IMG/VR virus record: IMGVR_UViG_3300018475_000004 | Length of the DNA stretch: 64,000 bases | Source of the DNA: a virus | Lineage: Duplodnaviria; Heunggongvirae; Uroviricota; Caudoviricetes | Strand: one strand, 5' to 3' | In this document: positions 48,002 through 63,374 of the stretch, one piece after another | How the letters are laid out: each line of letters begins with the position of its first letter | Numbering within the stretch: the first letter of the stretch is position 1 | Translations under genes and position numbers: made by a program | The notes under the pieces: generated by a model | The model's database searches: none | Told to the model about the DNA's origin: nothing | Seen by the model: the letters and a program-made list of their open reading frames with translations, nothing else

Positions 48002-48184
48002 AAGACGGTAACAGCGATTCAAAGATTAGCTTGTGGTGCCGCAGGTCGTTGGTTCGAGTCCAACCACCCTTCCCTCACCTGGCAAGGTGGCGTAGGTGAC
48101 TACTAAGGGGAACTTCGGTTCCCTGATATGAAGGGTGTAGCTTAGATTGGTAGAGCAGCGTAAGATCGAAAAAACTCCGTCTTG
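48002..48184 (+). ncRNA. ACAGCAA cassette 1 carrying circularly permuted tRNA-His(GTG)
   Basis: AAGACGG/CCGTCTT stem; tRNA 3' part 48029-48072 precedes 5' part 48130-48160. Confidence 0.85.
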
Positions 48185-48418
48185 AAGCTAAGTAAATATA
48201 ACATATTTGATTTTCAAAAAAAAATATGTTATAATATATATGTAAGGTAAAGGAAATACAAAGAGTATCCCTTTGTGAAGTGCCCAGGCCGTCTATCAGC
48301 GAAGTCCTGGGGCGAGGAACATCGGCAGAAAAATGTATTTTGAGAACCTCTCACGGAATGGGAAGAATAGCTGATAGTATATCGACTCACTGTCATGTTC
48401 TCACCTTACAACACATAT

Positions 48419-48494
48419 GGACGGTTAGCTCAGTCGGTAGAGCAGTAGGCTGTTAACCTACCTGTCGGGGGTTCAAGTCCCTCACCGTTCGCCA
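48419..48494 (+). tRNA. tRNA-Asn(GTT)
   Basis: Cloverleaf with CCA. Confidence 0.92.
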
Positions 48495-48664
48495 AGAGGT
48501 CAAGTATTAAGACCTTTTCAAAAAATAATACTCGGGCCTGTGGTACTCCCTAAATATGGACCACCGAGGTTTCAGCCATGTAGTTTCTCGTAAATATAAG
48601 CCATGGCACTCTCAATTACGGCCCCAGAGTCGAGAGTATAATAAAACTCGTGGGGCACTCATTT

Positions 48665-48750
48665 GGGGATATGGCGGAATTGGTAGACGCGCCGGATTTA
48701 GGCTCCGGTCCCGCAAGGGGTGACGGGTTCGAGTCCCTCTATCCTCACCA
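48665..48750 (+). tRNA. tRNA-Leu(TAG)
   Basis: Type II cloverleaf, CCA. Confidence 0.92.
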
Positions 48751-48850
48751 CACGCTCGTGGAACCGAGCAGTTCTTTTAGATTATCGGCTACTAATTGAA
48801 AGTCTGGGTGGTTGGCAACTCCATCAGAACATAAATAAGTTGCGATATTT

Positions 48851-48927
48851 GGGCTCATAGCTCCAACTGGGAGAGCGCCTGCCTTGCAAGCAGGGGGTTA
48901 CCGGTTCGAATCCGGTTGGGTCCACCA
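48851..48927 (+). tRNA. tRNA-Ala(TGC)
   Basis: Cloverleaf, G3:U70, CCA. Confidence 0.92.
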
Positions 48928-48929
48928 TA

Positions 48930-48999
48930 GTTCCTTTAGTTTAAGTAGGGAGAATGGCTTGAGGGCAAGAGATGTGGGTTCGAGTCCCATAAGGAACAC
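48930..48999 (+). pseudogene. tRNA-like element with degenerate anticodon arm
   Basis: GTTCCTT/AAGGAAC acceptor, D and T arms present; anticodon stem collapsed; no CCA. Confidence 0.65.
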
Positions 49000-49013
49000 A
49001 TATGTAGATGAAA

Positions 49014-49084
49014 GTCCCATTAGTTTAATGGCAGAACGCACGAAGTAATAGGTGTGATACTGGTTCGAATCCAGTATGGGAAAT
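49014..49084 (+). pseudogene. tRNA-like element with 10-nt anticodon loop
   Basis: TCCCAT/ATGGGA acceptor, ACTGG-TTCGAAT-CCAGT T arm, CGCAC-GAAGTAATAG-GTGTG; no CCA. Confidence 0.6.
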
Positions 49085-49473
49085 CTCCGGTTTTTTTATA
49101 ACCAGTTATCCGGTGAGGGGTTATTATTATGATTATGGATAACGACAATAACTCTGTTATAAACTGGGCTTAAAGTTGTTTGGTCATTTACAAGTATTTT
49201 TCGCAGGGGTGTTGGCTTAGAAGTTTGGACTAAAACTAAAACTTCTGAACGAAACTGGGAGGTTATGTGTCAACCAGAAACACTTTCGCAGGTTGCCCGC
49301 CGAGAGAGGCAAACGGCCCACATCGGGTGCTAAGAATAGAGGGTAATTTATTTGTTATCGGCTTCAGCCAGAAATGGAAACCGGACCCGTGATGCTGCGG
49401 ATGGGGGTGCACACCCTGAAATGCGTTTTTCTTGAATGAGAGTTCGCGGAATTCGGATCAAAATCCGCCACAT

Positions 49474-49560
49474 GGGGATATGATGGAATCGGTAGACGTG
49501 TCAGACTCAAAATCTGATGGCCGAGAGGTCGTGTGGGTTCGAGTCCCACTATCCCCACCA
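49474..49560 (+). tRNA. tRNA-Leu(CAA)
   Basis: Type II cloverleaf, CCA. Confidence 0.92.
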
Positions 49561-49713
49561 GCACCGCAGATGTTTGAGTAGGTACCGTCACTGCGGGTAT
49601 AAGTTAAAGACCTAGTACTTACGGGGAAGCGCCATGGGCAGAGTACCGCTGACAACTCTACTGGCCGCAACGGGGTTGTGATTTTACTCGTTGCTTGAAA
49701 ATCACTTTTATAT

Positions 49714-49792
49714 GGGTTATGGGGCTGCTTGGGGTGGCCACCTGTCTGGCAGACAGGATATCAGATCGGTTCGAATCCGATATGATCCACCA
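49714..49792 (+). tRNA. tRNA-Ala(GGC)
   Basis: Cloverleaf, CCTGT-CTGGCAG-ACAGG, CCA. Confidence 0.85.
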
Positions 49793-50028
49793 TTGGCTCA
49801 CGGTGAGCCTGGTTCCTAGGTGGGATCGACAAGAATACACCAGGCGCGACAACGGTGCGAGTACAACAGTTGTAGGCTTCAATGCATGGTCTTCATTATG
49901 CGTCGGTACCTAAGATGCCGTCAATATTGGTTGCTAGCGCCAATTCTAACTAAAAAATCTTTCTTGATTTTTATAAAAAAATATGTTATAATATTTATGT
50001 AAGATAAAGAAAGAGAGGTAAATGAAAT

Positions 50029-50130
50029 ATGTTTGATGATTTCACTACTCAGATTCAATCTGATGAACTGGCAGAAATCCAGGGATGGAATGATGCTATG
50101 GAAGACCCTCGTTATCTTTATGAAGAATAA
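50029..50130 (+). CDS. 33-aa acidic peptide (MFDDFTTQIQSDE...)
   Basis: Own class II promoter, GAGGT RBS, TAA directly before tRNA-Glu. Confidence 0.55.
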   Translation: MFDDFTTQIQSDELAEIQGWNDAMEDPRYLYEE

Positions 50131-50131
50131 T

Positions 50132-50208
50132 GGTCCCATCGTCTAACCGGCATAGGACACCACCCTTTCAAGGTGGAAATCGGAGTTCGAGCCTCCGTGG
50201 GATCACCA
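50132..50208 (+). tRNA. tRNA-Glu(TTC)
   Basis: Cloverleaf with CCA. Confidence 0.9.
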
Positions 50209-50483
50209 GATGGTAAGCCACCAGGAGAAGGAAAACCAGAAAAAACTGGAAATACCGGGGCGAAACCTTTGCCTAAACTGGGCTAAGAAATACAGGTTGC
50301 GTGCGGCCGCAGCACGAGTAAGGGACGTAAAGCGGTGGTTTAAGAGTGTTACCTATAACCAACCGGGCGAGAAAAACAAATGAGCAGGCCCGTTAAAATG
50401 ATAGTCGCGAATATCATCTGCAATCCTGGGCTGGTCGAAAGACCCTGGTCCACCCAAAGGCGCTGGCAACCGGCGCCACATAT

Positions 50484-50559
50484 GGCCCCGTCCTCTAACG
50501 GTTTAGGAGGTCGGCCTCTCACGCCGATAATCCGGGTTCGAATCCCGGCGGGGTCACCA
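50484..50559 (+). tRNA. tRNA-Glu(CTC)
   Basis: Cloverleaf with CCA. Confidence 0.9.
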
Positions 50560-50708
50560 TGCGGCTTGGCCGCTTTATGTAAAAGCGTTAACATGGATTT
50601 GTAAGTTAAACTACCACCGGCTAGGGATACGCAGAGCAATACTGATGCCTTAGATATGTGGCTTAGTGGAAAACGCTATATAAGGAAGCAAAGTAAACTT
50701 ACTAATAT

Positions 50709-50784
50709 AGCTTCGTGGAGCAGTGGAGTGCTCGTCAGTCTGTCACACTGAAGATCGCGGGTTCGATCCCCGTCGAAGCTGCCA
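50709..50784 (+). tRNA. tRNA-Asp(GTC)
   Basis: Cloverleaf, G73, CCA. Confidence 0.9.
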
Positions 50785-50951
50785 TAAGGTATGTTCCCAG
50801 TACCTCGTAGCGGAAAACCTGGGCGTGGAAGAGGAGACGAAAGAATCGCTTTTTTAAGTAGCAAGTTTTGGTGGTGAAACTGCTTTGGGTGTTGATATGA
50901 CCCTAGGGCTTAAGAGCATATTAAAGGATAGCTGTCCAACATCATTTATTT

Positions 50952-51028
<77 letters not shown>

Positions 51029-51224
51029 TTGTAGAGGGATTGAGCTAACCCAGTCCGGACTATAAAAAACTGAAAGCCTTGTAAAAAATGCATGAGGTTT
51101 CAAGAACAGTTTCTCTACTTACCAGATGACTAGGCTCCTGGATTTTTGGAATTCAAGGGACTGCCCCCTTAGAATAGTTAGTCAGGCTTAAAACAGGAAA
51201 CGCAGGACTGTACCTAGTCAATAT

Positions 51225-51300
51225 CCCTCGATAGCTCAGCTGGTAGAGCACTCGGTTCATACCCGGGATGTCGCTGGTTCGAGTCCAGCTCGAGGGACCA
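51225..51300 (+). tRNA. tRNA(CAT), Met or Ile2
   Basis: Cloverleaf with CCA. Confidence 0.85.
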
Positions 51301-51471
51301 GAAGCGCCAGTCATACGCGTTGGTACTGGATAGCCAAAGAGAAGTTCTCAAAATGGGTTGCAAACTGTTGCGATAAAATATTCTCCGCTTTGCCACCCGC
51401 TACTTTGCGGTTCATTTCCTTTCATGTGCGGTCGTGGGGGCTCCGACCGGAAAAAACTCCCCCTTAGATAT

Positions 51472-51545
51472 TGCAGTGGTCGTCTAATGGTAGGACACTA
51501 GGCTCATAACCTGGATACGAGGTTCGAATCCTCCGGCTGCACCCA
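51472..51545 (+). tRNA. tRNA(CAT), Met-like, imperfect acceptor/T junction
   Basis: CTAGG-CTCATAA-CCTGG arm, TTCGAAT loop, ends CCA. Confidence 0.7.
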
Positions 51546-51546
51546 T

Positions 51547-51622
51547 TGCGGGGTAGAGAAATGGTAACTCACTAGCCTCATAAGCTAGAGATTGTCGGTT
51601 CGAGTCCGACCCCACGCAACCA
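51547..51622 (+). tRNA. tRNA(CAT), initiator-like acceptor with bulge
   Basis: TGCGGGG-TA-GAG start, CTAGC-CTCATAA-GCTAG, CCA. Confidence 0.75.
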
Positions 51623-51657
51623 GAATCATAATGATTCTCCTTTCGTTTGTGTTCATA

Positions 51658-51776
51658 AAGACACTCACAGCAAATAGCTTTGTAGCGAGATTAGCTCAGA
51701 TGGGTGAGCAATTGTCTGATAAACAATAGGTCGTTGGTTCGAGTCCAACATTTTGCAAAACAAACAATGTGTCTTG
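51658..51776 (+). ncRNA. ACAGCAA cassette 2 carrying whole tRNA-Ile(GAT) lacking CCA (51685-51757)
   Basis: AAGACAC/GTGTCTT stem encloses unpermuted cloverleaf. Confidence 0.85.
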
Positions 51777-51781
51777 TATAT

Positions 51782-51858
51782 GGGCCGGTAGCTCAGCAGG
51801 TAGTAGCAGTGGACTGAAAATCCACGTGTCGGCGGTTCAATCCCGCCCTGGCCCACCA
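51782..51858 (+). tRNA. tRNA-Phe(GAA)
   Basis: Cloverleaf with CCA. Confidence 0.9.
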
Positions 51859-52147
51859 ATAGTCGGATAGGAGACTATATAATCAAAACCCTATCGTCAA
51901 GACCGGCATCAGGAGATCCACATCATTGGTTTCCTTTCTGTGGTACTTTTGTCATTGTGTTTTTCATTTTATGCCTCCTCATAAAAAATATACAGCGCGA
52001 TGTGGCTGCCGGAAACGTATCCTTTTCTATATATCTCGAAATATATAGAAACAAAAACTACTATATAGCAGAGAGTTTTTACATCTAGGCTCGGGTGAGT
52101 TTGTTTTTTACTCTGCTATTTCTAATGAAAAATTTCGGAGGAATATA

Positions 52148-53170
52148 ATGCAAGATTTATCAATTATTATTCCTGTTTATAATAATCGAGCAGGCTTAAT
52201 TTCGACTCTGTTATCTATTGGTGAAATCGCATAGACTGTCCTTGATTGGGGCATTAAAGTTATCATAGTTGATGATTGTTCTACCGAAGTGAACTATGAT
52301 GACATTCCTCAATTATTTACTTCATTTGTAGATATAACTTTATTTCGATTATCTGAAAATTCAGGACCAGGTCAAGCAAGACAATATGGTTTAGACCATA
52401 GTGATACTGAATATGTTATGTTTTTGGATGCAGGAGATGTATTATCTTTTCCAACTCATTTTATTCAGCTAATGGATTTGGTTTTGCGTCATCCAGATAT
52501 TAAAGTATTTTCATGTGGTCGAGAAGGTATTTCTGATACTCGTCAAATAGGCTATGTTGGTCCAGCGCATAATAAAATTCATGGAAAAATTTATCGATTG
52601 GATTTTCTGAAAAATTATAATATTAGATTCATTTCTGATCATTATTATTCAGAAGATATTGGATTTAATTTAGCTTGTCGATTAGTTTGTGCAGAATTAG
52701 AGCGACGAAAAAATGAGACTCAATTATTTGAATTTCCTAAGCCGATTACAACTGAATTATTCGATGGAAATTCTATTACTCGTAAAAATAATGGTGAGTT
52801 TAAATATACCGAGAATTATGGTCTTGGGTATAATTTAGTTCATGCTCTTGAAATTGCTTTATCGAACGGTGTTCATCCTTCTATTATTGAAGTGTATGGA
52901 TATGAAAATTTAATCTGTCAATATATTTTCTTTTACGAAGCATATACCCATCAAAAAGGTCTTGAAAAAAGTTTAGAGGGATGCCGTTATTGGTATCGAA
53001 ATTTTAAGTATTGTATTCCTAAATTCAATGAGCAATTACTAACTAAAGTATATAATGATATGATGAAAAAATTATATGCAGAAGATGTAGAATATGCTTT
53101 CAATACAACTATTCCTAAATTATCTTTTTGGGATTTTATAAATCTTCTGGAAAAAGAAGATAAAGAGTAA
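52148..53170 (+). CDS. GT2-family glycosyltransferase (code 15, 340 aa)
   Basis: MQDLSIIIPVYNN...GEIA*TVLD...IIVDDCSTE joined through TAG 52232-52234; GPGQARQYG, FLDAGD, SEDIGF motifs. Confidence 0.9.
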
Positions 53171-53188
53171 GAGCAATCTTACTCATAT

Positions 53189-53278
53189 GGACGTGTGGGA
53201 GAGAGGCTTAATCCAGCTCCCTGCTAAGGAGCCGACCTCGTAAGGGGTCCGCTGGTTCGAATCCAGCCACGTCCGCCA
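53189..53278 (+). tRNA. tRNA-Ser(GCT)
   Basis: Type II cloverleaf, G73, CCA. Confidence 0.92.
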
Positions 53279-53452
53279 AGAGCAGAGAAGTACAATTTGC
53301 TTAGTGATGTATAGTGTAGGTAGGAAAGAGCACGCCAAAATGGAGGTCATATGCCAGAGTAGGTAACCCGGACGCCTAAGAAGCTCACCCGGTGCATCAC
53401 GCAGGCATCTAACGCCAAGGGCTTGCGGCCGCCAGTAAGTGTCGCATTATAT

Positions 53453-53540
53453 GGAGGAGTAAGCATAATTGGTACTGCCACGGTCTAGAAAACCGTTCGT
53501 CCGCAAGGGCGTGCAGGTTCGAGTCCTGTCTCCTCCGCCA
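53453..53540 (+). tRNA. tRNA-Ser(AGA)
   Basis: Type II cloverleaf, ACGGT-CTAGAAA-ACCGT, G73, CCA. Confidence 0.88.
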
Positions 53541-53697
53541 GCGTCTTTAGGGGCGGGATAGTGGCGTGAAAGTAAATGTGTCATGCAGGTTGTGCTGTTC
53601 CTCACTACATCTTGAATGTAGGAGTTGCATTGAAATTAAAACCCCTCTGTTATACTCCAGGCAGTTATTACGATTCTAGATTCTCGTAGGAGAATAT

Positions 53698-53774
53698 GCC
53701 CCGATAGCTCAGTTGGCCAGAGCATTTGATTAGTAATCAAAAGGTCGTCGGTTCGAATCCGACTCGGGGCTCCA
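53698..53774 (+). tRNA. tRNA-Thr(AGT)
   Basis: Cloverleaf, TTTGA-TTAGTAA-TCAAA, U73, CCA. Confidence 0.9.
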
Positions 53775-53909
53775 TATAGGTGCCTCGAAGTTTGCCCGAT
53801 AAAGGTTTGAGTCCAAAAGGTTGAGACCTAAAGTGCTCAACATAATAAAGGGGATTACAAGCATACCAGAAGCAGAGGTAAATGGAATTTGATAAACAGC
53901 CTATAATTT

Positions 53910-53986
53910 GCGCGCTTAGCTCAGCTGGTTAGAGCATCTGCCTTACAAGCAGGGGGTCACTGGTTCGAATCCAGTAGTGCGCACCA
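53910..53986 (+). tRNA. tRNA-Val(TAC)
   Basis: Cloverleaf with CCA. Confidence 0.92.
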
Positions 53987-54121
53987 CTCTCCGTAGTTGG
54001 TTCCATTTGCCAATATAGATAGAAAAGTTCTTTCGCCGTTGATACCCGCAAATATTGGGAGTAGGTTAGGAAAGTGAGGCACAAGCGCACTGGACCTGCG
54101 CTGGCTACGGAGATACCATAT

Positions 54122-54197
54122 GTGGGTGTAGCTCAGTTGGTAGAGTATCTGATTGCCATTCAGAAGGTCGCGGGTTCGAATCCCGTTACCCACTCCA
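54122..54197 (+). tRNA. tRNA-Gly(GCC)
   Basis: Cloverleaf, U73, CCA. Confidence 0.9.
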
Positions 54198-54355
54198 AAA
54201 GTCATATCGAGGGGTATGGTTGAAGCGGTGCAAGATGGATAGAGTTGGCCATAAACGCGGATAGTCCATGTAGCAGGGTAGATATGATAAAGAGGTACTC
54301 TCTGATGCGGAGAGCTAAGTAGGGAGAAGACCGCACTCATATGCCTCTTTGATAT

Positions 54356-54433
54356 GGTGGGTGTAGCTTAGTTGGTTAAAGCGCCAGATTGTGGCTCTGG
54401 AGATCGCCAGTTCGAGTCTGGTCACTCACCCCA
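54356..54433 (+). tRNA. tRNA-His(GTG)
   Basis: 8-bp acceptor with G-1:C73, CCA. Confidence 0.92.
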
Positions 54434-54512
54434 TAGACAGACACAGCAAATATATTTTTTACTAAAAACGCTTATTTTGGGTTTAAGAAATGTTAAAGTA
54501 ATTTCTGTCTAG
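54434..54512 (+). ncRNA. ACAGCAA cassette 3, cargo includes Pro(TGG)-like anticodon stem-loop
   Basis: TAGACAG/CTGTCTA stem; CTTAT-TTTGGGT-TTAAG. Confidence 0.75.
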
Positions 54513-54517
54513 TATAT

Positions 54518-54594
54518 GCGCCAGTGGCTCAGTAGGATAGCGCAACTGCCTTCTAAGCAGTAGGTCGGGGGTTCGAATCCCTCCTGGCGTACCA
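54518..54594 (+). tRNA. tRNA-Arg(TCT)
   Basis: Cloverleaf with CCA. Confidence 0.9.
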
Positions 54595-54702
54595 CTTAGG
54601 GAGTAGAGTAACGGTGCCCCTTACGAAGTCGAAGCTTGGCTAAGTTCAAGCGACCATGGCGCACACCGCGAATCCTAAATTGAAGAAAAGGAGAAATTCA
54701 AG

Positions 54703-54933
54703 ATGGTTACACCTGTAAAGTTTGAAACCAAGGAAGATTTATTCCGTTTCAGTGAGTTAGCAAGTAAGCAGGATTTCAATATTTTCATCGGTACTGATTA
54801 TGGTCAGTTAGATGCCAAGAGTCTTCTGGCTCTGTTCACCATTCTCGGCAAGGAAGTAAATGTTGTTGCCCCTGATCACGCAAGTGCTGACAAGTTTATG
54901 AAGTTCCTCGATGAGTATAACCGTGCGGTCTAA
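54703..54933 (+). CDS. HPr-like phosphocarrier-fold protein
   Basis: 76 aa, LDAKSLLALFTI matches HPr Ser46 region; lacks N-terminal active-site His. Confidence 0.55.
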   Translation: MVTPVKFETKEDLFRFSELASKQDFNIFIGTDYGQLDAKSLLALFTILGKEVNVVAPDHASADKFMKFLDEYNRAV

Positions 54934-54946
54934 TCCGCACAAATAT

Positions 54947-55023
54947 GCGGGTTTAGCTCAGTTGGATAGAGTACCTGGCTACGAACCAGTAGGTCGGGGG
55001 TTCGAGTCCCTCAACCCGTACCA
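54947..55023 (+). tRNA. tRNA-Arg(ACG)
   Basis: Cloverleaf with CCA. Confidence 0.92.
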
Positions 55024-55172
55024 ATAGAGTCCTCCAGAACTCTTGCGACAAATCGCTAATCTGGATATGGGGATGGGGCCCAAAAGGATCAGAATTAGGT
55101 GGGCTTTATGTTGCGGTTGAGGCGGCCCGCAACAGTTGATTTTCAAAAAAATTTTTGATATAATATATACAT

Positions 55173-55291
55173 AAGGCAGATACAGCAAATAACTTTTTTC
55201 AAGTTCTATAGTCTATTGGATATGACATTTTCCTTCCACGAAAAAGAGACGGGTTCAATTCCCGTTAGAATCAGAAAAATTACCTGCCTTG
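55173..55291 (+). ncRNA. ACAGCAA cassette 4 carrying degenerate whole tRNA-Gly(TCC)
   Basis: AAGGCAG/CTGCCTT stem; TTTTC-CTTCCAC-GAAAA arm, GGTTCAATTCC T loop, no CCA. Confidence 0.8.
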
Positions 55292-55296
55292 AATAT

Positions 55297-55373: not shown

Positions 55374-55374
55374 A

Positions 55375-55442: not shown

Positions 55443-55451
55443 CTTTTATAT

Positions 55452-56015: not shown

Positions 56016-56330
56016 TTGAAGAAGATGCCAAGAATTATTTCAGCCGCAATCAAATTCAAGCCAAAAGGTCATGAATATTTTCAAATCATGTGCGGTCGCC
56101 AGCATTGTGACGTGCTGGAAATGATGTATCAGCTTCGCATTGATTATGAGCGATCCTCAATGGTTCAAGGCTTCTTGACTGATGAAGATCAATTCCTTGA
56201 TCGATATGACGCGGCTCGCGCAGCTTATTTCTCTGGCCAGCTTTCTCCTAACACGGAGCTTTGGCAGAAAATGGCTTCTGATGACCGTTTCCAGAACGCA
56301 CACGCTCTCTATTCGGAGGATTTATGGTAA
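56016..56330 (+). CDS. Conserved hypothetical phage protein
   Basis: IISAAIK...GRQH.D...QGFLTDEDQFLDRYDA...A...GQL...LYSEDLW; probable start ATG 56025. Confidence 0.7.
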   Translation: MKKMPRIISAAIKFKPKGHEYFQIMCGRQHCDVLEMMYQLRIDYERSSMVQGFLTDEDQFLDRYDAARAAYFSGQLSPNTELWQKMASDDRFQNAHALYSEDLW

Positions 56331-56482
56331 GTTGGATACGGTCTTTATTTTGTAAGCATGAATGGCAGTTTCATAAGACTGTCCGAATATGGTGGGACCC
56401 AGAAGCAAATGTCATTGATCAGCAATATGATGTTTATGTCTGTCCCAAGTGTTTGAAAGTAAAAAAAGTAAAGTTCATATAA
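56324..56482 (+). CDS. Small Cys/His protein (LFCKHEW...CPKC)
   Basis: 52 aa overlapping upstream stop, GGAGG RBS. Confidence 0.6.
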   Translation: MVSWIRSLFCKHEWQFHKTVRIWWDPEANVIDQQYDVYVCPKCLKVKKVKFI

Positions 56483-56487
56483 AATAA

Positions 56488-56597
56488 AAGGCACATACAG
56501 CAATTACACATTCTATGTGTTGTGGGTTCAAGTCCCATTTTTCTAGCCATTTTAGAAAATAGTACAATCGGTAGTACAATAGACTTCAAGTGCCTTG
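56488..56597 (+). ncRNA. ACAGCAA cassette 6 carrying circularly permuted tRNA with probable TCA anticodon
   Basis: AAGGCAC/GTGCCTT stem; TCTAT..T arm..TTTTCTA-G-CCA then TAGAAAA, D arm, ATAGA-CTTCAA. Confidence 0.8.
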
Positions 56598-56604
56598 TTT
56601 ATAT

Positions 56605-56680
56605 TGGGGATTGGCGTAATGGTAGCGCGCAGGACTTTGACTCCTGGTCTGTAGGGGTTCGACTCCCTTATCCCCAGCCA
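56605..56680 (+). tRNA. tRNA-Gln(TTG)
   Basis: U1-A72, G73, CCA. Confidence 0.9.
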
Positions 56681-56708
56681 TAAGCCTTTTTATATTCATT
56701 CAACATCT

Positions 56709-56772
56709 AAGACTCTAACAGCAATTTATTTTGGAACAACCTTTTAACTTGTCTACCAGAAACTGAGTCTTG
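56709..56772 (+). ncRNA. ACAGCAA cassette 7, cargo Lys(TTT)-like anticodon stem-loop
   Basis: AAGACTC/GAGTCTT stem; ACAAC-CTTTTAA-CTTGT. Confidence 0.8.
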
Positions 56773-56783
56773 AACATTTATAT

Positions 56784-56857
56784 TCCCGCTTAGTCTAATG
56801 GCAAAACGGCAGACTCTGACTCTGCATTTGGTGGTTCGAGTCCATCAGCGGGAGCCA
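56784..56857 (+). tRNA. tRNA-Gln(CTG)
   Basis: U1-A72, G73, CCA. Confidence 0.9.
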
Positions 56858-57198
56858 AACTCATAGTGGATAATGGCGTTACGTTCCTAATCGGCCGCTG
56901 CCCCAGAAATGCGAAAATGTGTCGAACCTATGAGTTGCCAAAAGTAGGAGTTCTTGGATGGGAACCAAGTATAAATCTCTGAAAAACCTCAAAGGTGGGC
57001 TTTGAAAGTAGCCATCCTATAATGAGTGGTGCGATGCGTACGGCGGACCTTTGGTGTAATAACACATGAGGCAGGTTTGCGGTCAACCTGGCCAAAAACC
57101 GAAATGTGTTCTGCGCGACCGGCCGAAGGGGCAACGGGAATAATGACCCTTCACCAAAAATTTGACTTTTCAAAAAAAATTTGTTATAATATAAATAT

Positions 57199-57277
57199 AA
57201 GGCTCAAACAGCAATTCTTATTCATAAAATTTGCGACTGCAACTCGCTCCAACTGTATGAGAAAAAAGTGAGCCTTG
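57199..57277 (+). ncRNA. ACAGCAA cassette 8, cargo Cys(GCA) anticodon stem-loop
   Basis: AAGGCTC/GAGCCTT stem; GCGA-CTGCAAC-TCGC on TCATA/TATGA stem. Confidence 0.82.
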
Positions 57278-57279
57278 AA

Positions 57280-57965
57280 GCACTCCTGACAGAAACCCTC
57301 CGGTGAATAACCCTGGTGAGTGCGATTTCGACTAATGACTGTCATGAACCTTGATAAGTTTGCAACTCGGTGAAGAACGAATACCATCGTGCCGAGATCC
57401 TCATCCTGCCTGTGGGTACCAGGAGTCCGAAAAGCAATCTTACCGACGATAGCCGGTAATAGGTAGATTCTCTTGTGGTGACATAAGAGAGCCGCCTCCA
57501 AAGGGAGGGCCTGGATGGAGAGGAGTGCAAAGATAACCGCAATCAAAAATACCGTCTTATCGCTTCCGCAATAGACGCCCCCGTGGGGAATAAGCCTTGT
57601 TAGGGATTAGCTGGTGACTGTTCCAGACCAAGGTACACCAATAAGGAAGTCTGCGTTGATGTCGGAGTAATCCGGCTATAAGGTAAGGTCAGGGTACGAG
57701 TAGCTCTATCGCAACGACGAGAAGAAAGATTGGGCTGTTTAGATAGTATGGTTTAATAGACTTAAACAATTCTGAATGGCGAGTGAAAGTTAGAGGCAAT
57801 CAGTCCTCTGCGGGATAGGGTAGGAAAGGCCGCCTCTGGTGTGTCAGAACTACTGGGGCAAGAAGCTTAGGGTCGCTCCCGAAGGCTCAGACTTGTCTCC
57901 CCGGTGATTGAATATGGTTGAAGGTTATAGGGAGTATGACGAAGGTCAGCAAACTTATCAGGTTT
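57280..57965 (+). ncRNA. Probable GOLLD RNA (boundaries approximate)
   Basis: About 690 nt ORF-free structured region between tRNAs; 3' blocks GTAGCTCTATCGCAA, GAATGGCGAGTGAAAGTT..AATCAGTC, GGGTCGCTCCC..GGCTCAGAC, GAATA..GAAGGT..AGTATG..AAGGTC resemble the GOLLD 3' core as I recall it. Confidence 0.68.
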
Positions 57966-57973
57966 ATAAATTT

Positions 57974-58127
57974 GGGAAACTGGCGGAATTGATAAACGCA
58001 CCGGAGCCGAAAGGCTTTTCATTTGAAAAAGGTGTTGGCAAAGACCTTATCCGCAATATGTTTCTATGATTACTGTAAATCCGGCGTCTGAAAAGACTTC
58101 TTGGTTTGAGTCCAAGGTTTCCCACCA
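57974..58127 (+). tRNA. tRNA-Tyr(GTA) interrupted by 67-nt insertion (58006-58072)
   Basis: GGGAAAC/GTTTCCC, A73, CCA, long variable arm; removal gives CCGGA-CTGTAAA-TCCGG. Confidence 0.8.
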
Positions 58128-58493
58128 GGGGCGAAAGAAATGTCGCCTAGCCCCCGTAAAGGCGACAATCAGCGAGTTCATTATTTTTCTCGCTCCACCA
58201 CCCTCCATGCCCAAGGAGATTGAACAAGGCTAAAGCGAAAGTCCTCGCGTGACGTGTTGAGCCTCCAGGTTGCTCGTGCCTGCACAGCGACTGTTTTCAC
58301 AATGCGTCGGGAAGTGTCTGAGCGATGTAGATTTTACCCGGGACAAGTCTACACCGGTAGGTCGTTCAAGTTGAGGTCAGACATATACTGAACAAGGCAT
58401 TTATATTTCGGCAGACACCGTGGCCGGCGTTAGATAATTTATATGATTTAGTTTTGAAATATAGTAGAAGCTAAAAGAAAAGGAGATTTTACT

Positions 58494-58901
58494 ATGTTAT
58501 TTGAAACAAATCGTGACAAAGGTCGCGCAGGTATGGCAATGGCAATTGCCTATTTTGGAGCCAATGGATACACTGTGAATGTTCCTCTAAATGATACTCA
58601 ATGGTATGATTTAGTCATTGAAAAAGATGGTGAATTTAAGACAGTCCAATGTAAAGCAACTGGAAGTTCTGATAATACTATTTCTTTGAGAAGTACTGGC
58701 GGAACCAAGGGCGGTACGTATGATAATGTTCTTAATCATCCAGTTGATTATTTATTCTGTTTAGATGGAAATATGAATATGTATGTCATTCCAGTAGCAG
58801 ATATGAAAGAATATGGCTGTAATAAACAAATTACTCTCCGCACTCAAAAATCTGCAAATGGATAGGGTTTTCAAACTTATCAATATCAGGTGTCTTTATA
58901 A
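58494..58901 (+). CDS. Small PD-(D/E)XK endonuclease (group-I-intron-associated / I-Ssp6803I-like; code 15)
   Basis: KGRAG..A.AYF...GY.V..PL.D...YDLVIE......VQCK; TAG 58863-58865 read through to TAA 58899-58901. Confidence 0.75.
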
Positions 58902-58911
58902 TTAAAGATAT

Positions 58912-59001
58912 GGGTCAGTAAAGCGTTAAGGCAGGCGCCCCGGTCTGTAAAACCGGTCCGTTAACACGGTCGAGTGAGTTCAATTCTCTCCTGGCCCACC
59001 A
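58912..59001 (+). tRNA. tRNA-Tyr(GTA)
   Basis: Type II cloverleaf, A73, CCA. Confidence 0.88.
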
Positions 59002-59771
59002 AGAGGTTCAAACCTCTAAAAAATGAATACCATTCGCTGCGAATATAGGCGGGGCATCCTTTCATTCCCAAAGTCCTCGTAGGGTAAAACGTGAGAACTG
59101 CTCCTATGGCTGAAGGTTCTCGGTGGTATTTGAACTAAATAAGGTTTCACTCCGCCTGGTGACTGTGGTGAAACGATATATCCCGACCCGTGCTGATACG
59201 TATCAGATATTTAGTTCGACGCCCCATATGCGTTAATATGGTAGGTTTTCTTTTGACTTTTACCTCAAGCACATAGTTTGATTTTTTCGCTAAAAAGTCA
59301 AAGAGCAGTTTAGTGTTAAAAAGAAAGTGAGACCTTTACTTATAGTCTACGGTCTGTAAGATAAAGTAATCTCCGCTAAGTTGCGCTTCCCCAGACGAAT
59401 AAATAAATCTGAGCGCCTCTATCGCGAAATGGATAGATGATATTGGGTAGCGATAATTGATTGCAGATTTGCCAACTGCCTTAATGTATAATGATATTAG
59501 AAATCTTGTAGGAACTGACATAGCACATGGACCCCAATTCCATGGTCAGGCAACGAAAAGCAAAAGGTGAATACAAGTGGAAAATCCATATTGAATGATG
59601 ATAAGAGCCGATGGTAAATTAGAAGCAGGTCGGTAGTATATGGCGACTCGTTGTAGTCAGCGCATATAAAGTAGGCTCAAGTTAGATTTCAATGTGGATT
59701 TTTTCTATCCTTTTTACTTTGAAAAGTTGATTTTCTAAAAAATTTTTTGTATAATATATACATAAGAAATA

Positions 59772-59838
59772 AAGGCTCACACAGCAACTAATTTTATGAT
59801 GCAGACTTAAAATCCGTTTATCAGAAAAGCGAGCCTTG
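59772..59838 (+). ncRNA. ACAGCAA cassette 9, cargo Leu(TAA)-like anticodon stem-loop
   Basis: AAGGCTC/GAGCCTT stem; GCAGA-CTTAAAA-TCCGT on TGAT/ATCA stem. Confidence 0.8.
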
Positions 59839-59842
59839 ATAT

Positions 59843-59918
59843 GCCAGTATAGCGTAATTGGCAGCGCAACTGACTTGTAATCAGTAGGTTGTCGGTTCGA
59901 GTCCGACTACTGGCTCCA
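59843..59918 (+). tRNA. tRNA-Thr(TGT)
   Basis: Cloverleaf, U73, CCA. Confidence 0.92.
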
Positions 59919-59946
59919 TAAGTTTTATATAGAAAGGATGATTCCA

Positions 59947-60726
59947 ATGCAGGGTGCTATATTTTCAGGTTATGATGCCCGAGATTACAAATTGGTTTAC
60001 ACCGCTTCTGGCGTAGAATTCCCCGCTGAATTTGAGCTGAAGATGCGTGGTATTAAGAATTAGGGTGCGGTCGGCAGCTGTGTCGCTCACTCTTTAGCTA
60101 GTATTATCGAATACTACAACTATACTCAAACTGGTGATCCCAGTGAAATGAGTGTAGGCTATATTTACGGAAACCGTAATACTTCTGACTATAAAGAGTC
60201 AGGTATGATTATGCGTGATGCTCTTGAAGTTGTTCGTAAATATGGCGACGTCAAATATGATTTATTCCCTTACAATCGTGAAGTCCCCGAAATGATTGAT
60301 CTTTATGAGCGTCAGGGTAAGAAATTATTCAAGCAAGGTTATCCCAACCGCATTAGTCAGTATGCTCGTGTTACCAGTTTCAATGCAGTAAAGGCTGCTT
60401 TGATGGCTGGCAATCCTGTTCTAATGGCTATGTGCTGGTTCGCTGATATGGAAGTTGATGATGAAGGTGTTCTACGCACTGAATTTAAAGGCTACGATGG
60501 CGGACATTGTATGTTCATCTATGGCTGGGATGAGCGTGGCTGGAAGGTCCAGAACTCTTGGGGTGAAGATTGGGGAAATCATGGATGTATGATTATTCCT
60601 TACGATATGCCCATCGAAGAAGTTTGGACTTTGACCGATAATGTAATTGAGAATACTAAGACTAAGAAACCCCATAAGTGTATCGCAAAAGTATGTAATG
60701 CTATTTCTAAAATTTTCAAAAAGTAA
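59947..60726 (+). CDS. C1 (papain-family) cysteine peptidase (code 15, 259 aa)
   Basis: IKN*GAVGSCVAHS (TAG 60061-60063 at oxyanion Gln), GGHCM, VQNSWG motifs. Confidence 0.92.
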
Positions 60727-60739
60727 TAAGAGGTAAATT

Positions 60740-61105
60740 ATGATTTTCGATGAGAACAAGTACAAGTGTTATGGTTATGACGAGAAGAATGAGGACGGTT
60801 CCATCCGTTGTCATTGTGTCGTCGCAATTTCTTCCTATGCTGGCAAGCCTGTAAAGGGTTACGCTAAGTGCCATCCTAATGACCAGTGGGACTGGGAAAA
60901 GGGTAAGGCTCTGGCTATCGCTCGCTGCGCCGAGAAGATCGCTGTGAAGCGCGCCAATCGTGCAAACGCAAAGCTGGCTGAGGCTCAGGATATTCTGGCA
61001 GACGCTATCGCTCATATGAACGATATGCTGAACTACTACATGGATTCCGGCGACGAAGTTATGCTAACCAACACCATGAAGAACGAGATTTTGGCTCATA
61101 TGTAA
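60740..61105 (+). CDS. Conserved hypothetical phage protein
   Basis: YAGKPVKGYAKCHPND.WD.EKGK.LA.ARC motif. Confidence 0.7.
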   Translation: MIFDENKYKCYGYDEKNEDGSIRCHCVVAISSYAGKPVKGYAKCHPNDQWDWEKGKALAIARCAEKIAVKRANRANAKLAEAQDILADAIAHMNDMLNYYMDSGDEVMLTNTMKNEILAHM

Positions 61106-61144
61106 TTATATAGAAGGGGCATTATGCCCCTTCAATAGAGTTAT

Positions 61145-61233
61145 GGACAGGTGGTAGAGTCTGGCTTATTACACCGGTCTTGAAAACCGGCGGGCGTAAT
61201 GCTCCGGGGGTTCGAATCCCTCCCTGTCCGCCA
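61145..61233 (+). tRNA. tRNA-Ser(TGA)
   Basis: Type II cloverleaf, G73, CCA. Confidence 0.9.
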
Positions 61234-61343
61234 TCATTTGTAGTTCAAGAAGAAGAATACCCCGTTCCGGAACTTTTTGGGGAGATCTCTTGCGCTACCC
61301 GCCAAGAGCAAATGAGCCTATAAAATTTAGAGAGGATGATTTT

Positions 61344-61667
61344 ATGATTGGTGTTTACAATCGTGATGTATCAATTCGTAAGGCTTTAAGAAAGCGTAGA
61401 ATCGATCAGCAACACAAGACAAGTTGGAATAATGGAGAACCTGTTACCTGGTATGACAACCTTCACCAGTATTCTAAAAATAAAATCCATTCATCTCATT
61501 ATACCTCCCGCACCCGCAACAAGGGTTCCAGGAGAATAAAGTATGGAAATTATGACCGCGCTATCCATTACAGTGCGGCCGATATGCGGAAGGTCCTTGC
61601 GATGGACGAAGATATGCGGGAGGCTGGCTATCACGCGCCTCGACACAAGCGTTGTCGTTTCGCATAA
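61344..61667 (+). CDS. Basic hypothetical protein
   Basis: 107 aa, R/K-rich, RBS GAGGA. Confidence 0.6.
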   Translation: MIGVYNRDVSIRKALRKRRIDQQHKTSWNNGEPVTWYDNLHQYSKNKIHSSHYTSRTRNKGSRRIKYGNYDRAIHYSAADMRKVLAMDEDMREAGYHAPRHKRCRFA

Positions 61668-61849
61668 TGGGACGCCGCAAGAAAAGACCTGAACTATCTT
61701 ATCACTTCTGGCTTGATACAGATGGATGCTGGTTCTGCAAGAAGAAAAATGCCTGCGGTGGATGTAAAGTATTGAAGCGCTACATCCATGAAAAAGAGAG
61801 AAGTCAGAGAAAAATTTCTCGTGACGAGAAGCGTTGGCTTGACTTTTGA
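61667..61849 (+). CDS. Small basic Cys-cluster protein
   Basis: 60 aa, CWFC..CGGC, TAATG coupling. Confidence 0.6.
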   Translation: MGRRKKRPELSYHFWLDTDGCWFCKKKNACGGCKVLKRYIHEKERSQRKISRDEKRWLDF

Positions 61850-61875
61850 AATTTTTTTTAGTATAATAAATACAT

Positions 61876-62012
61876 AAGGCACATACAGCAATACATTTTT
61901 CAAAATTTAAGGCTGTCAACCCGTAGGCTGCAGGTTCGAGTCCTGTCCCCGTCTCCACGGCGGGGTAGCTCAAGTGGTAGAGCAACGTAAAACGATTTTG
62001 TGATGTGTCTTG
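61876..62012 (+). ncRNA. ACAGCAA cassette 10 carrying circularly permuted tRNA-Asp(GTC)
   Basis: AAGGCAC/GTGTCTT stem; 3' part 61911-61957 ending CCA precedes 5' part 61959-61987. Confidence 0.88.
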
Positions 62013-62023
62013 ATTTATTATAC

Positions 62024-62098
62024 TGCGGTGTCGTTCAAAGGTCAGGACAGGGGTCTCTAAAACCTCGGATGTGAGTTCGATTCTCACCGCCGCTGCCA
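62024..62098 (+). tRNA. Amber suppressor tRNA (anticodon CTA), probably Gln
   Basis: GGGGT-CTCTAAA-ACCTC arm, U1:U72 mismatch, G2-C71, G73, CCA. Confidence 0.9.
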
Positions 62099-62166
62099 AA
62101 GAGATCGTAATTGATTTTTATAAAAAAAAATGATATAATATATACATAAGAGATAAGGAAATAAAA

Positions 62167-62261
62167 AAGGCTCTTACAGCAAGTCTTAAACTTGGATAAT
62201 AAAATTTTTTCTGTACAAAATTTTTAGTAGGTTCGAGTCCTACAAACTATCAAGAGCCTTG
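62167..62261 (+). ncRNA. ACAGCAA cassette 11, cargo D-armless tRNA-like element (GTA loop plus T arm)
   Basis: AAGGCTC/GAGCCTT stem; CTGTACA loop; GTAGG-TTCGAGT-CCTAC. Confidence 0.75.
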
Positions 62262-62268
62262 TCTAAAT

Positions 62269-62355
62269 CCCGGCGTGGTGGAATTGGTAGACACAAGGGA
62301 CTTAAAATCCCTCGGTGGCGACACCGTACCGGTTCGAGTCCGGTCGCCGGGACCA
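62269..62355 (+). tRNA. tRNA-Leu(TAA)
   Basis: Type II cloverleaf, CCA. Confidence 0.92.
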
Positions 62356-62434
62356 CGAATCTTAAATAGAAAGGACTGAGTCCAATGTGGAGGTTTACTG
62401 TCTTCTAACTTCAACAAAAGGAGGTTAGAAGTAA

Positions 62435-62734
62435 ATGAGTAGGTCCTACAAGCACACTCCCCGATCCGGGGATAAGAAGGACAAGTATTTCAAAAGATAT
62501 TCCAACCATAAAATCCGCCGTCTTCCCATCGACGAGCATTCCGCAAAGGGTAAGGCTTATAAAAAAGTTTTACACGATTATTTGATTTGCGACTATGAGA
62601 CAGTCGGCACTTCTTTTGAGCAATATTGGAAGCGTCTCGTCAAAAGATGGCATGAATGGGAATGGCGTTATGCGCCATATCCTGATCGCAATGAGGCATA
62701 TCAAGAATATTGTCGTTGGTACATTCGCAAATGA
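62435..62734 (+). CDS. Basic hypothetical phage protein (MSRSYKHTP)
   Basis: 99 aa, AAGGAGG RBS. Confidence 0.7.
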   Translation: MSRSYKHTPRSGDKKDKYFKRYSNHKIRRLPIDEHSAKGKAYKKVLHDYLICDYETVGTSFEQYWKRLVKRWHEWEWRYAPYPDRNEAYQEYCRWYIRK

Positions 62735-62854
62735 GTTGATTTTTCAAAAAAATTTTTGTATAATATAAATACAAGGAAAAAAGAAAATCTTCTCCCCTTT
62801 CTTTAAGTTCCTATCTTCTCGGGGGCATTCCTCGGAGTGCCCCACCTTTTCGAT

Positions 62855-62929
62855 GCGGGATTAGTACATCGGCTAGTGCGCCTGCCTTCCAAGCAGGATA
62901 GGAGGGTTCGATTCCCTTATCCCGCTCCA
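62855..62929 (+). tRNA. tRNA-Gly(TCC)
   Basis: Cloverleaf, U73, CCA. Confidence 0.9.
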
Positions 62930-63048
62930 TTCTTAACTATCCCAGATTGTTGAACTGGGCCGGCAGGATAAAAACTTACCACTCGATGCATCACTAAAGT
63001 CGAAATTGAGCGTAGTGGTTTCGACAAATAAGGTTAAGAAATTTCAAT

Positions 63049-63218
63049 GAGAGCCATACAGCAAACAACTTTGCATAATGCAAAATCGCTACATCTGGTA
63101 GCTCTATCGTATTTTATCAAATACAATTTTAATGATCAAGAAAGAAGAATGGTTTTTTACTAAAACTCTTTCGGTTCTCTCAAAGTAATTTTATTAAGTC
63201 TTGGTGGTGAGGCTCTCG
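63049..63218 (+). ncRNA. ACAGCAA cassette 12, about 150-nt multi-hairpin cargo
   Basis: GAGAGCC-AT-ACAGCAA ... GGCTCTC-G. Confidence 0.72.
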
Positions 63219-63279
63219 ACACTCATCATCGCCCAGAAACTGATATAAACGAACGAGAGAATCATATATTTATTTGTGT

Positions 63280-63374
63280 AGGCACATCCAGCAAATAATA
63301 ACAAGAAAAAGACATTTTACATTTTAGACGATCAAAATATAAAAAACCTTTTACATAGTTATTTTTAGTGCCTC
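63280..63374 (+). ncRNA. ACAGCAA cassette 13 (CCAGCAA variant), AU-rich cargo
   Basis: AGGCAC-AT-CCAGCAA ... GTGCCT; inner AATAAC/GTTATT stem. Confidence 0.65.

Follow-up and report, generated by a model that had tools for sequence, protein, structure and literature searches.

The window examined here is a stretch of 64,000 nucleotides (nt) read from the minus strand of a 138.8-kilobase (kb) phage record in IMG/VR (IMGVR_UViG_3300018475_000004; Caudoviricetes), which is ~67% complete. Positions 47000-64000 of the window hold an array of 36 tRNA genes, every one on the plus strand, and three further tRNAs lie past the window end. CCA stands at the 3' end of ~33 of the 36 array tRNAs, and ordinary tRNAs for His, Asp, Tyr, Ile and Gly are already encoded there. 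Across this array lie 13 small RNA cassettes, in each of which the same terminal frame encloses a variable cargo. An earlier reading of the DNA letters alone (the sequence-only reading) had claimed 13 such elements, and we found all of them in place and on the tRNA (plus) strand. The results described below indicate that the cassettes are real small-RNA genes of one strand-specific family, and suggest that they are partner RNAs of a Ro60-like protein whose gene lies just outside the window.

Thirteen cassettes share a covarying frame

The frame consists of a 7-base-pair (bp) clamp (WAGRCNN/NNGYCUW) between the RNA ends, with a G after the 3' strand; 2 nt after the 5' strand comes the unpaired word NCAGCAA, which is followed by W. 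Twelve copies have the 7-bp terminal helix and the G, 11 of them with perfect Watson-Crick pairing and one, at 61876, with a single G.U pair. For the thirteenth copy, which is divergent, the sequence-only reading had proposed a shift of one nt before the G. The divergent copy does exist, but it is better described without the shift, as 63279-63375, with the clamp UAGGCAC/GUGCCUC, one terminal U.C mismatch and then the G. The whole arrangement (covarying 7-bp clamp, 2 nt, NCAGCAA, cargo, clamp and G, on one strand) was found in 13 of 13 copies, those with the G.U and the U.C included, and the word reads NCAGCAA in every copy except one that has ACAGCGA. Over the full 138.8-kb record the tRNA strand contains ACAGCAA 14 times, with 11 of these occurrences in frames. 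A relaxed scan of the whole record revealed no 14th copy. UUGCUG, the complement of CAGCAA that would be needed for pairing in trans, was found neither in the ROOL RNA of the array nor elsewhere in 47000-64000.

We assessed the helix with a test anchored on the 5' half of the frame, covering this and 15 other phage loci. A perfect 7/7 partner strand was found within 330 nt of 65 of the 86 anchors, compared with 3 of 86 when the 5' strand was shuffled, and a G followed the 3' strand in 81 of 86. The mismatches included 13 of the G.U/U.G type and none of the A.C type. Because G.U but never A.C mismatches occur, the clamp helix is read as RNA, and on the tRNA strand. In a set of 63 short members all helix cells pair (440/440), compensatory changes are present at 5 of the 7 pairs, and the covariation score was reached by none of 500 shuffles, which is the covariation that the sequence-only reading had named as a check. 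Since these 63 members had been selected for pairing, it is the 5'-half anchor test that we take as the fair test.

A covariance model, R1, was then based on 63 copies, of which 4 came from the window and 59 were foreign. When it was run over 47000-64000 with filters off, the top 13 matches were the 13 elements, with exact ends. Eleven window copies matched at E 1e-9 to 2e-3, on the plus strand only, and the two weak ones were those at 63049 (E 0.07) and 48002 (E 0.3). A model built mostly from other genomes thus ranks the 13 elements first. Together, these analyses show that the 13 cassettes are real small-RNA genes of a strand-specific family, and they bear out the earlier claim that the frame is a conserved, covarying module holding interchangeable tRNA-derived cargo.

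tRNA-derived cargo is frequent but optional

Two of the cargos in the window are whole tRNA bodies (Ile-GAU and Gly-UCC) that have no CCA and weak acceptor stems. Four others, at 48002, 55811, 56488 and 61876, run from a T arm through an acceptor-like stem closed by a loop to a D arm. When the halves were rejoined, ARAGORN called 48002 as tRNA-His GUG, 55811 as tRNA-Tyr (438 junction-spanning calls) and 61876 as an Asp-like tRNA, and 56488 gave weak calls only. N-CCA lies within the acceptor-closing loop of 56488 and 61876. The short copies present clear anticodon-like loops for Lys-UUU, Cys-GCA and Leu-UAA and a less canonical one for Pro-UGG. Of the cargo classes in the sequence-only reading, then, whole, permuted and anticodon-loop cargos were all seen, the rejoining of 56488 and the Pro-UGG loop being the weaker part.

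We extended the survey to 351 distinct family members. A seven-base CU-NNN-A(A/C) loop on a stem of 4 bp or longer was found in 85 of the 351, compared with 8 of 351 reverse-complement controls. The commonest anticodon among these loops is UUU (Lys), followed by GAA, GUU and GCA. The T-arm motif is present in 71 of the 351 cargos and neither a T nor a D arm in 270, and the smallest members, of 42-44 nt, hold only a mini-hairpin. These figures indicate that the frame is the constant part and that tRNA-derived cargo is frequent but optional. The window stands out within the family, with 13 copies as against at most 10 in any other genome examined, and with the widest range of cargo.

The family extends across phages and gut Clostridia

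With a 14-base pattern we found frames in 33 of 108 viral stretches. The 5' half occurred 4-7 times, clustered and mostly on a single strand, in each of 16 phage genomes, whereas a reversed control pattern gave one match in 23 genomes. A further 70 elements were collected from 14 of 15 phage stretches. The AGAG-type clamp of copy 12 was found again in other phages (L112, L115 and L124).

A 22-base pattern for one clamp sequence matched in at least 120 bacterial assemblies, mostly of gut or rumen Clostridia and with cultured strains among them. Across 120 bacterial loci the frames, 272 in all, stand in tandem arrays of 1-6, and 66 of these loci have no nearby tRNA. When the flanking open reading frames (ORFs) were clustered, one family of ~495 amino acids (aa) proved to be shared by 105 of the 120 loci. 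Its genes mostly have the strand of the frames, and their median distance from the array is 85 nt. By Pfam this neighbour is a DUF2828 and DUF7788 protein. The order of the bacterial operon is WYL, WYL, the RNAs, the DUF2828/DUF7788 protein and RtcB, and the operon is present in the cultured Faecalimonas umbilicata DSM 103426 and Clostridiales bacterium CCNA10. In two of these operons (L137:3060-3304 and L133:5938-6343) Rfam reports 'tRNAs' of 115-134 nt with long inserts beside the frames, and such calls probably represent additional tRNA mimics belonging to this system.

A Ro60-like protein accompanies the frame

The phage has its own member of this protein family, of 503 aa (DUF7788, 8e-35; DUF2828, 6e-28). 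Its gene lies ~5.2 kb past copy 13, just outside the window, and three tRNAs, a methylase gene and a GmrSD/HNH gene intervene. A sequence search of the Ro-like protein against the PDB gave no match. An AlphaFold model of the DUF2828/DUF7788 protein, computed from 33 homologues, reached a predicted local distance difference test score (pLDDT) of 84, and in a fold search against the PDB its top 13 matches were all Ro60, Rsr or phage phiLo Ro60, at full length and with E 4e-9 to 2e-5, followed by bare vWA domains. The full-length matches comprise phage phiLo Ro60, Xenopus and human Ro60 and Deinococcus Rsr. Against the Swiss-Prot models, the search returned Ro60 of five species and then telomerase p80. 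As judged from the predicted structure, the DUF2828/DUF7788 protein has the Ro60 fold over its full length.

We next asked how closely protein and frame are linked. Each of the 14 frame-bearing phage genomes tested, among them that of the phage studied here, has a single DUF7788 gene, and none was found in the four tested phages that have no frame arrays. In the reverse test, which started from the protein in 80 viral loci, same-strand frames were found in 58 (143 frames), as against one opposite-strand frame, and they lie mostly within ~1.6 kb upstream of the Ro-like gene or just downstream. Other candidates for a partner were considered. For canonical Ro60, Pfam TROVE gave no match in this and 17 other frame-bearing phage records (10 or more of which exceed 90% completeness), because Pfam TROVE misses the DUF2828/DUF7788 protein; the candidate partner belongs to another Pfam family with the same fold. 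The ORFs in or beside the array encode a glycosyltransferase, a PD-(D/E)XK nuclease, a papain-like peptidase and DUF2726 proteins, none of them an obvious RNA-binding partner.

Promoters and transcripts of the array

A uniform promoter occurs at 13 sites in 47054-63674. It reads TTGAYTTTT, an A-rich spacer, (TG)NTATAAT, ATATAYRT and the transcript start AAGR, with 17 nt between TTGAYT and TATAAT in the core. The AAGR at the start of the phage's predicted transcripts is also the first four bases of the clamp. The copies at 55173, 57199 and 61876 begin 8 nt past the -10 box, that is, at the predicted transcription start; two further copies lie within 30 nt behind a promoter, and one directly follows tRNA-His. 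Nine copies end 4-11 nt upstream of the next tRNA, and a terminator is absent behind 12 of the 13. Promoter starts, tRNA 3' processing and RNase P together would release every copy as a discrete RNA. The copy at 57199 is predicted to head a transcript that runs on into ROOL.

For expression we used relatives in four gut metatranscriptome runs, which are available as contigs only, with neither RNA ends nor strand, and which may contain DNA. Depth was ~10^4 for ROOL and for an OLE-like stretch and ~2-390 for the frame-bearing bins. The first ROOL bin had a summed depth of ~10^4, well over the neighbouring ORFs, and the OLE-like bin 63443-64000 had the highest depth of the region, 1,700-13,000. 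Among the metatranscriptome joints listed, none represented back-joined cargo inside a cassette.

Table 1. Coordinates of the cassettes, promoters and other features of the locus. Positions are those of the window unless prefixed with L253.
Feature	Position	Strand	Description	Scores	Placement
Copy 1	48002-48184	+	Word ACAGCGA; permuted tRNA-His-like body: T arm, 8-bp closed acceptor stem with ~57-nt insert, D arm	YrlA RF02553 43.7 bits (gathering 69); R1 12.1 bits, E 0.3, exact ends	
Copy 2	51658-51776	+	Whole tRNA-Ile(GAU) body (51685-51757), no CCA, weak acceptor stem	R1 E 7e-6	Ends 5 nt before tRNA-Phe
Copy 3	54434-54512	+	Hairpin with Pro(UGG)-like loop	R1 E 4e-9 (copy in training set)	Directly after tRNA-His; ends 5 nt before tRNA-Arg
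Copy 4	55173-55291	+	Whole tRNA-Gly(UCC) body (55202-55273), no CCA	R1 E 8e-6	Starts 8 nt past -10 box of promoter 55136-55164
Copy 5	55811-55947	+	UAGACAC clamp; permuted tRNA-Tyr(GUA)-like body	R1 E 3e-6	
Copy 6	56488-56597	+	T arm, 7-bp acceptor-like stem closed by GCCA-containing loop, D-like arm	YrlA 31.7 bits, below threshold; R1 E 3e-7	Ends 7 nt before tRNA-Gln
Copy 7	56709-56772	+	Shortest copy; anticodon-stem-loop mimic, loop CUUUUAA (Lys UUU)	R1 45 bits (in training set)	
Copy 8	57199-57277	+	Anticodon-loop mimic CUGCAAC (Cys GCA)		8 nt past -10 box of promoter 57162-57190; 64 nt upstream of same-strand ROOL
Copy 9	59772-59838	+	Anticodon-loop mimic CUUAAAA (Leu UAA); 12 nt in common with the arm of the phage's own tRNA-Leu(UAA)		Promoter 59727-59755; ends 4 nt before tRNA-Thr
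Copy 10	61876-62012	+	Permuted tRNA, intact GUC (Asp) anticodon loop, acceptor stem closed by loop UCCAC; clamp with one G.U	YrlA 40.8 bits, below threshold; R1 E 1e-5	Starts 8 nt past -10 box of promoter 61839-61867
Copy 11	62167-62261	+	Long hairpin and T arm, no D arm	R1 E 5e-7	Promoter 62111-62139; ends 7 nt before tRNA-Leu(UAA)
Copy 12	63049-63218	+	Variant clamp GAGAGCC/GGCUCUC; cargo of 146 nt, no tRNA class given	R1 14.6 bits, E 0.07, exact ends	
Copy 13	63279-63375	+	Word CCAGCAA; clamp with terminal U.C; AU-rich hairpin cargo	R1 21 bits, E 2e-3	Sole copy with a terminator-like hairpin behind (63376-63401)
Promoter (example)	57162-57190	+	TTGACT, 17 nt, TATAAT		Shared by copy 8 and ROOL
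Equivalent promoters	55136-55164, 59727-59755, 61839-61867, 62111-62139	+			
ROOL RNA, full length	57342-57967	+		323 bits	64 nt downstream of copy 8
tRNA with CUA anticodon (amber suppressor)	62024-62098	+			Copy 10 ends 11 nt upstream
OLE RNA 3' part	63543-63632		90-nt match, model positions 436-595	52.9 bits (gathering 50)	Just past tRNA-Lys
DUF3800-XI RNA motif	50427-50462			47.6 bits (gathering 37.8)	Inside the tRNA array
Weak tRNA-like elements	48930-49083		Two elements by Rfam, not called by ARAGORN	38.6 and 40.8 bits	
Inter-tRNA spacers (examples)	49100-49470, 49560-49710, 50210-50480		GC-rich, apparently structured, 100-350 nt		
DUF2726-like ORFs	41548-42183, 45932-46654, L253:3993-4601				Around the array
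Ro60-like gene	L253:4858-6369	Record minus (window plus)	DUF2828/DUF7788 protein		Past the window end
EcoRI-type adenine methylase gene and GmrSD-N/HNH nuclease gene	L253:6492-8881				Past the window end, between the tRNA array and the Ro60-like gene

Other features of the locus

Several further features of the array are listed in Table 1. The OLE-like match may represent a phage RNA that shares an OLE substructure. A DUF3800 gene was not found in the 138.8-kb record, despite the DUF3800-XI motif there. The record gave no match for the MVP-shoulder domain, and since the control genomes gave none either, this negative is uninformative. A megablast of 54000-60000 against GenBank phages returned a single match, a 57-nt tRNA stretch, and no near-identical phage.

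Discussion

The paired ends, the motif on the 5' strand, the tRNA-like module, the ring protein encoded on the same strand and RtcB make up a layout like that of Ro60 and its Y RNAs, and it is on this basis that we read the frame as a docking handle and the cargo as a tRNA-mimicking effector. The cassettes are thus quite likely to be Y-RNA-like partner RNAs of the Ro60-like DUF2828/DUF7788 protein. The sequence-only reading had listed a protein-binding scaffold among the possible roles of the frame, and the tight genetic linkage of the frame to the Ro60-like gene favours that role. The RNAs would be excised from tRNA-array transcripts, with a 5' end given either by a promoter or by the point where the preceding tRNA ends, and a 3' end set by an RNase P cut at the next tRNA a few bases downstream. 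The 7-bp clamp (WAGRC.../...GYCUW-G) would display the unpaired (N)CAGCAA, and clamp and word together would form the predicted docking handle for the phage's Ro60-like ring protein. The variable cargo may then act as the effector module, in the form of whole CCA-less bodies, closed T-before-D bodies as in YrlA, or bare anticodon stem-loops.

Because the cargo copies parts of tRNAs, enzymes that bind or cleave tRNA would take the particle for one. In bacteria the RNA-protein pair stands beside RtcB and two WYL regulators, which suggests a function in tRNA damage, be it sensing, baiting or repair. To the phage, the particles could be a means of coping with host nucleases that cut anticodon loops. 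The company of RtcB and WYL proteins, the tRNA-array setting in phages and the bias towards anticodon loops all point to tRNA damage in phage-host conflict. Given that the RNAs are partners of the Ro-like protein, we consider a bait or decoy for tRNA-targeting nucleases and an adaptor through which tRNA-handling enzymes or damaged tRNA reach the ring to be about equally probable. The data establish an RNA family with its strand and covariation, its linkage to the protein gene and the Ro60 fold of that protein; binding, RNA ends and function are what we infer from them, and we put the explanation as a whole, covering production, handle, cargo and a role in tRNA damage, at a probability of about 0.75.

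A number of observations weigh against this explanation. No strict frame was seen in 22 of the 80 viral loci that have the protein. In the phage studied here ~5 kb separate the Ro-like gene from the closest cassette and up to 20 kb from the most distant one, and with the intervening genes this makes the linkage looser locally than in most relatives. The handle is unlike the published Ro60-binding motifs GGUCCGA, GNCGAA and CGAA, and the protein has no Pfam TROVE match. Docking of the frame RNAs on the DUF2828 protein is a prediction from linkage and fold, and the metatranscriptome contigs, being contigs only that may contain DNA, are evidence neither way.

Other explanations of the frame have to be weighed against the same data. 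The sequence-only reading had also proposed a processing or ligation signal that makes tRNAs. The helix would join the ends of the tRNA pieces, and an endonuclease and the RtcB ligase would yield a circular or re-ordered RNA that matures to a working tRNA. The three cargos that are called as tRNA once their halves are rejoined, the N-CCA inside the acceptor-closing loops and the place of RtcB in the bacterial operon would all suit such a pathway. However, the idea is weakened because most members (the 270 of 351 with no T or D arm, some of only 42-44 nt) have no tRNA body and because RtcB was not found in this record or in 13 frame-bearing phage relatives (11 of which have a completeness of 92% or more). 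Two cargos are already unpermuted bodies, yet they have neither a CCA nor a strong acceptor stem, tRNAs with the same anticodons are present in normal form in the array, and no back-joined form of a cassette appeared among the metatranscriptome contigs listed. In addition, a T arm before a D arm with a closed acceptor is the layout of YrlA, which is unspliced (PMC4201824). We regard tRNA production by ligation as quite improbable. That the cassettes belong to a described family, either YrlA-type Y RNAs for a canonical host Ro60 (Rsr) or skipping-rope RNAs, is very improbable. Three cargos do reach 32-44 bits against YrlA, whose architecture also combines a terminal stem with a tRNA-like module (PMC4201824). 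Yet all these scores are below 69 and come from the tRNA-like part, the other ten copies have no match, GNCGAA is absent, and no Pfam TROVE gene was found in this record or in the 17 other frame-bearing ones. Nor did the short frames match any Rfam family at E ≤ 10, or the frames of the bacterial operons any, and the terminator of skipping-rope RNAs is missing in 12 of the 13 copies (PMC5737381).

The frame might also act with no Ro-like protein at all, as a 5'-terminal clamp that stabilises the array transcripts and marks the breaks in tRNA processing, or as a ligand-binding or catalytic motif, the co-occurrence with the protein then reflecting shared genome ancestry. Such a role would agree with the three copies at predicted transcription starts, with the majority that end 4-11 nt before a tRNA, with the one that heads the ROOL transcript and with the AAGR that the clamp has in common with the starts of the phage's other predicted transcripts. 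Against it, more than half of the bacterial loci (66/120) have no nearby tRNA, yet the Ro-like gene is adjacent in 105 of 120. The linkage also spans very different genomes, bacterial operons as well as phages of 119-201 kb, and nearly all frames share the strand of the protein gene. A mere stabilising hairpin would need neither an invariant unpaired CAGCAA nor a fixed clamp sequence. We consider a protein-independent frame unlikely.

If the cassettes are indeed partner RNAs of the Ro60-like protein, DUF2828/DUF7788 would be a second Ro60-like protein family with an RNA family of its own, one that we did not find described in the literature or in RNA libraries. The pair is present in at least 120 bacterial assemblies and hundreds of viral contigs. 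Interest in Ro60 and its Y RNAs centres on their roles as an RNA quality-control particle and a human autoantigen, and in bacteria and phages only the versions with the canonical TROVE protein are known. The modular cargo, and most of all its bare anticodon loops, among which Lys-UUU is the commonest, suggests particles that sense, bait or repair tRNA damage in phage-host conflict. Since cultured strains hold the operon, the question is open to bench work. What this window contributes is a 13-copy panel with a wide range of cargo, copies at transcription starts and one that leads ROOL.

Comparison with known RNA systems

Permuted and split tRNA genes, as in Cyanidioschyzon merolae and Nanoarchaeum, depend on a bulge-helix-bulge and an archaeal or eukaryal splicing endonuclease to give working tRNAs. 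We know of no bacterial or phage splicing endonuclease. The cassettes resemble these genes in that the 3' part of the tRNA precedes the 5' part in four cargos and the flanks pair. They differ in that most family members have no tRNA body and in that no linked ligase or endonuclease candidate was found in the phages.

Beyond tRNA and YrlA matches below threshold, no Rfam 15 family touched the frames, whether over the 18 kb of 46000-64000 (E ≤ 5), in short stretches (E ≤ 10) or in the bacterial operons. We take the skipping-rope family to be contained in Rfam 15, as these results presume. The sequence-only reading had loosely identified the frame with this family and had proposed an Rfam model search for it; that search gave no match, over 46000-64000 at E ≤ 5, in short stretches or even with a single short frame at E ≤ 10, and the identification is not supported. 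Both are structured RNAs with a linked protein gene nearby. Skipping-rope RNAs are described by Weinberg et al. (2017) as having Rho-independent terminators behind them (PMC5737381), whereas 12 of the 13 copies here have none, and the DUF3800 gene related to skipping-rope is missing from this record. On the other hand, the earlier statement that no description of the system was known stands, as the frame RNA was found neither in Rfam 15 nor in the published literature searched.

The Class I RNAs of dictyostelids have a short stem that joins the ends, an 11-nt conserved unpaired motif next to the 5' strand and a variable remainder, at a length of ~60 nt (PMC7919456). They are encoded by many genes per genome, the class is found only in dictyostelids, and the sole direct binder reported is the RRM protein Rnp1A (PMC7919456). 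In the Rfam consensus RF01414 the 5' strand is followed by the unpaired UUACAGCAAUU, which contains ACAGCAA and then U/A. The two RNAs are therefore alike in the short end-joining stem, in the conserved unpaired motif after the 5' strand, with the same word, and in the variable rest. They are unlike in clamp sequence, in spacing (~4 nt there and 2 nt here) and in the 3' tail, and no tRNA-derived cargo is reported for Class I. With the RF01414 model (gathering score 41.5 bits) the whole record yielded four matches, at 10-12 bits and none of them in a frame, and a single short frame yielded none at E ≤ 10. The likeness is one of shared design and word and not of family membership. The common word nevertheless offers a lead on the molecular role of the Dictyostelium Class I RNAs, a question dating from 2004. 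A bolder idea, which we hold to be doubtful, is that clamp and ACAGCAA are an ancient recognition element of the DUF2828 branch of Ro60-like proteins, common to gut Clostridia, hundreds of phages and the dictyostelid Class I RNAs. Phages would then use it as a display stand for any part of a tRNA, baiting or reporting host anticodon nucleases, with a 13-piece panel in this one.

The closest parallel is with the bacterial and phage Y RNAs (YrlA/YrlB and Yrn1). These have a terminal stem, a Ro-binding motif on the 5' strand and a tRNA-like module, and in Salmonella are encoded in an rsr-yrlBA-rtcBA operon (PMC4201824, PMC7790460). In YrlA the motif near the 5' end is GNCGAAN0-1G or CGAA (PMC4201824, PMC12135203), and the T arm precedes the D arm with the acceptor closed, in an unspliced RNA (PMC4201824). 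The Ro60 of Thermus phage phiLo binds Y-like RNAs (Yrl1/Yrl2) next to its gene (PMC12135203). Against the YrlA model RF02553, the copies at 48002, 61876 and 56488 scored 43.7, 40.8 and 31.7 bits, all below the gathering score of 69, by virtue of the tRNA-like part of the cargo and not the handle, and the other ten gave no match. The motif GNCGAAN0-1G or CGAA was not present at the handle position in the frame copies. Four of the 13 copies (48002, 55811, 56488 and 61876) have the YrlA-like domain, with T arm before D arm and a closed acceptor-like stem.

The two systems therefore differ in several respects. The protein here is DUF2828/DUF7788, with a predicted Ro60 fold but no Pfam TROVE match; the handle is the WAGRC clamp with NCAGCAA in place of GNCGAA/CGAA; and the bacterial regulators are WYL proteins where the Y RNA operon has RtcR. 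The cargo is also wider, with bare anticodon stem-loops, whole tRNA bodies and plain hairpins, and here its 13 copies are spread across a tRNA array. What they have in common is RNA ends that pair with each other, a conserved motif, unpaired or bulged, beside that stem on the 5' strand, several RNAs per locus, and a second, tRNA-mimicking module in which the T arm precedes the D arm and the acceptor stem is closed. Both also have a ring-shaped protein of HEAT repeats and a vWA domain, which is predicted for DUF2828/DUF7788 and encoded on the same strand, and RtcB in the bacterial operon. We conclude that the system is a variant of the known Ro60/Y-RNA theme rather than a new kind of system.

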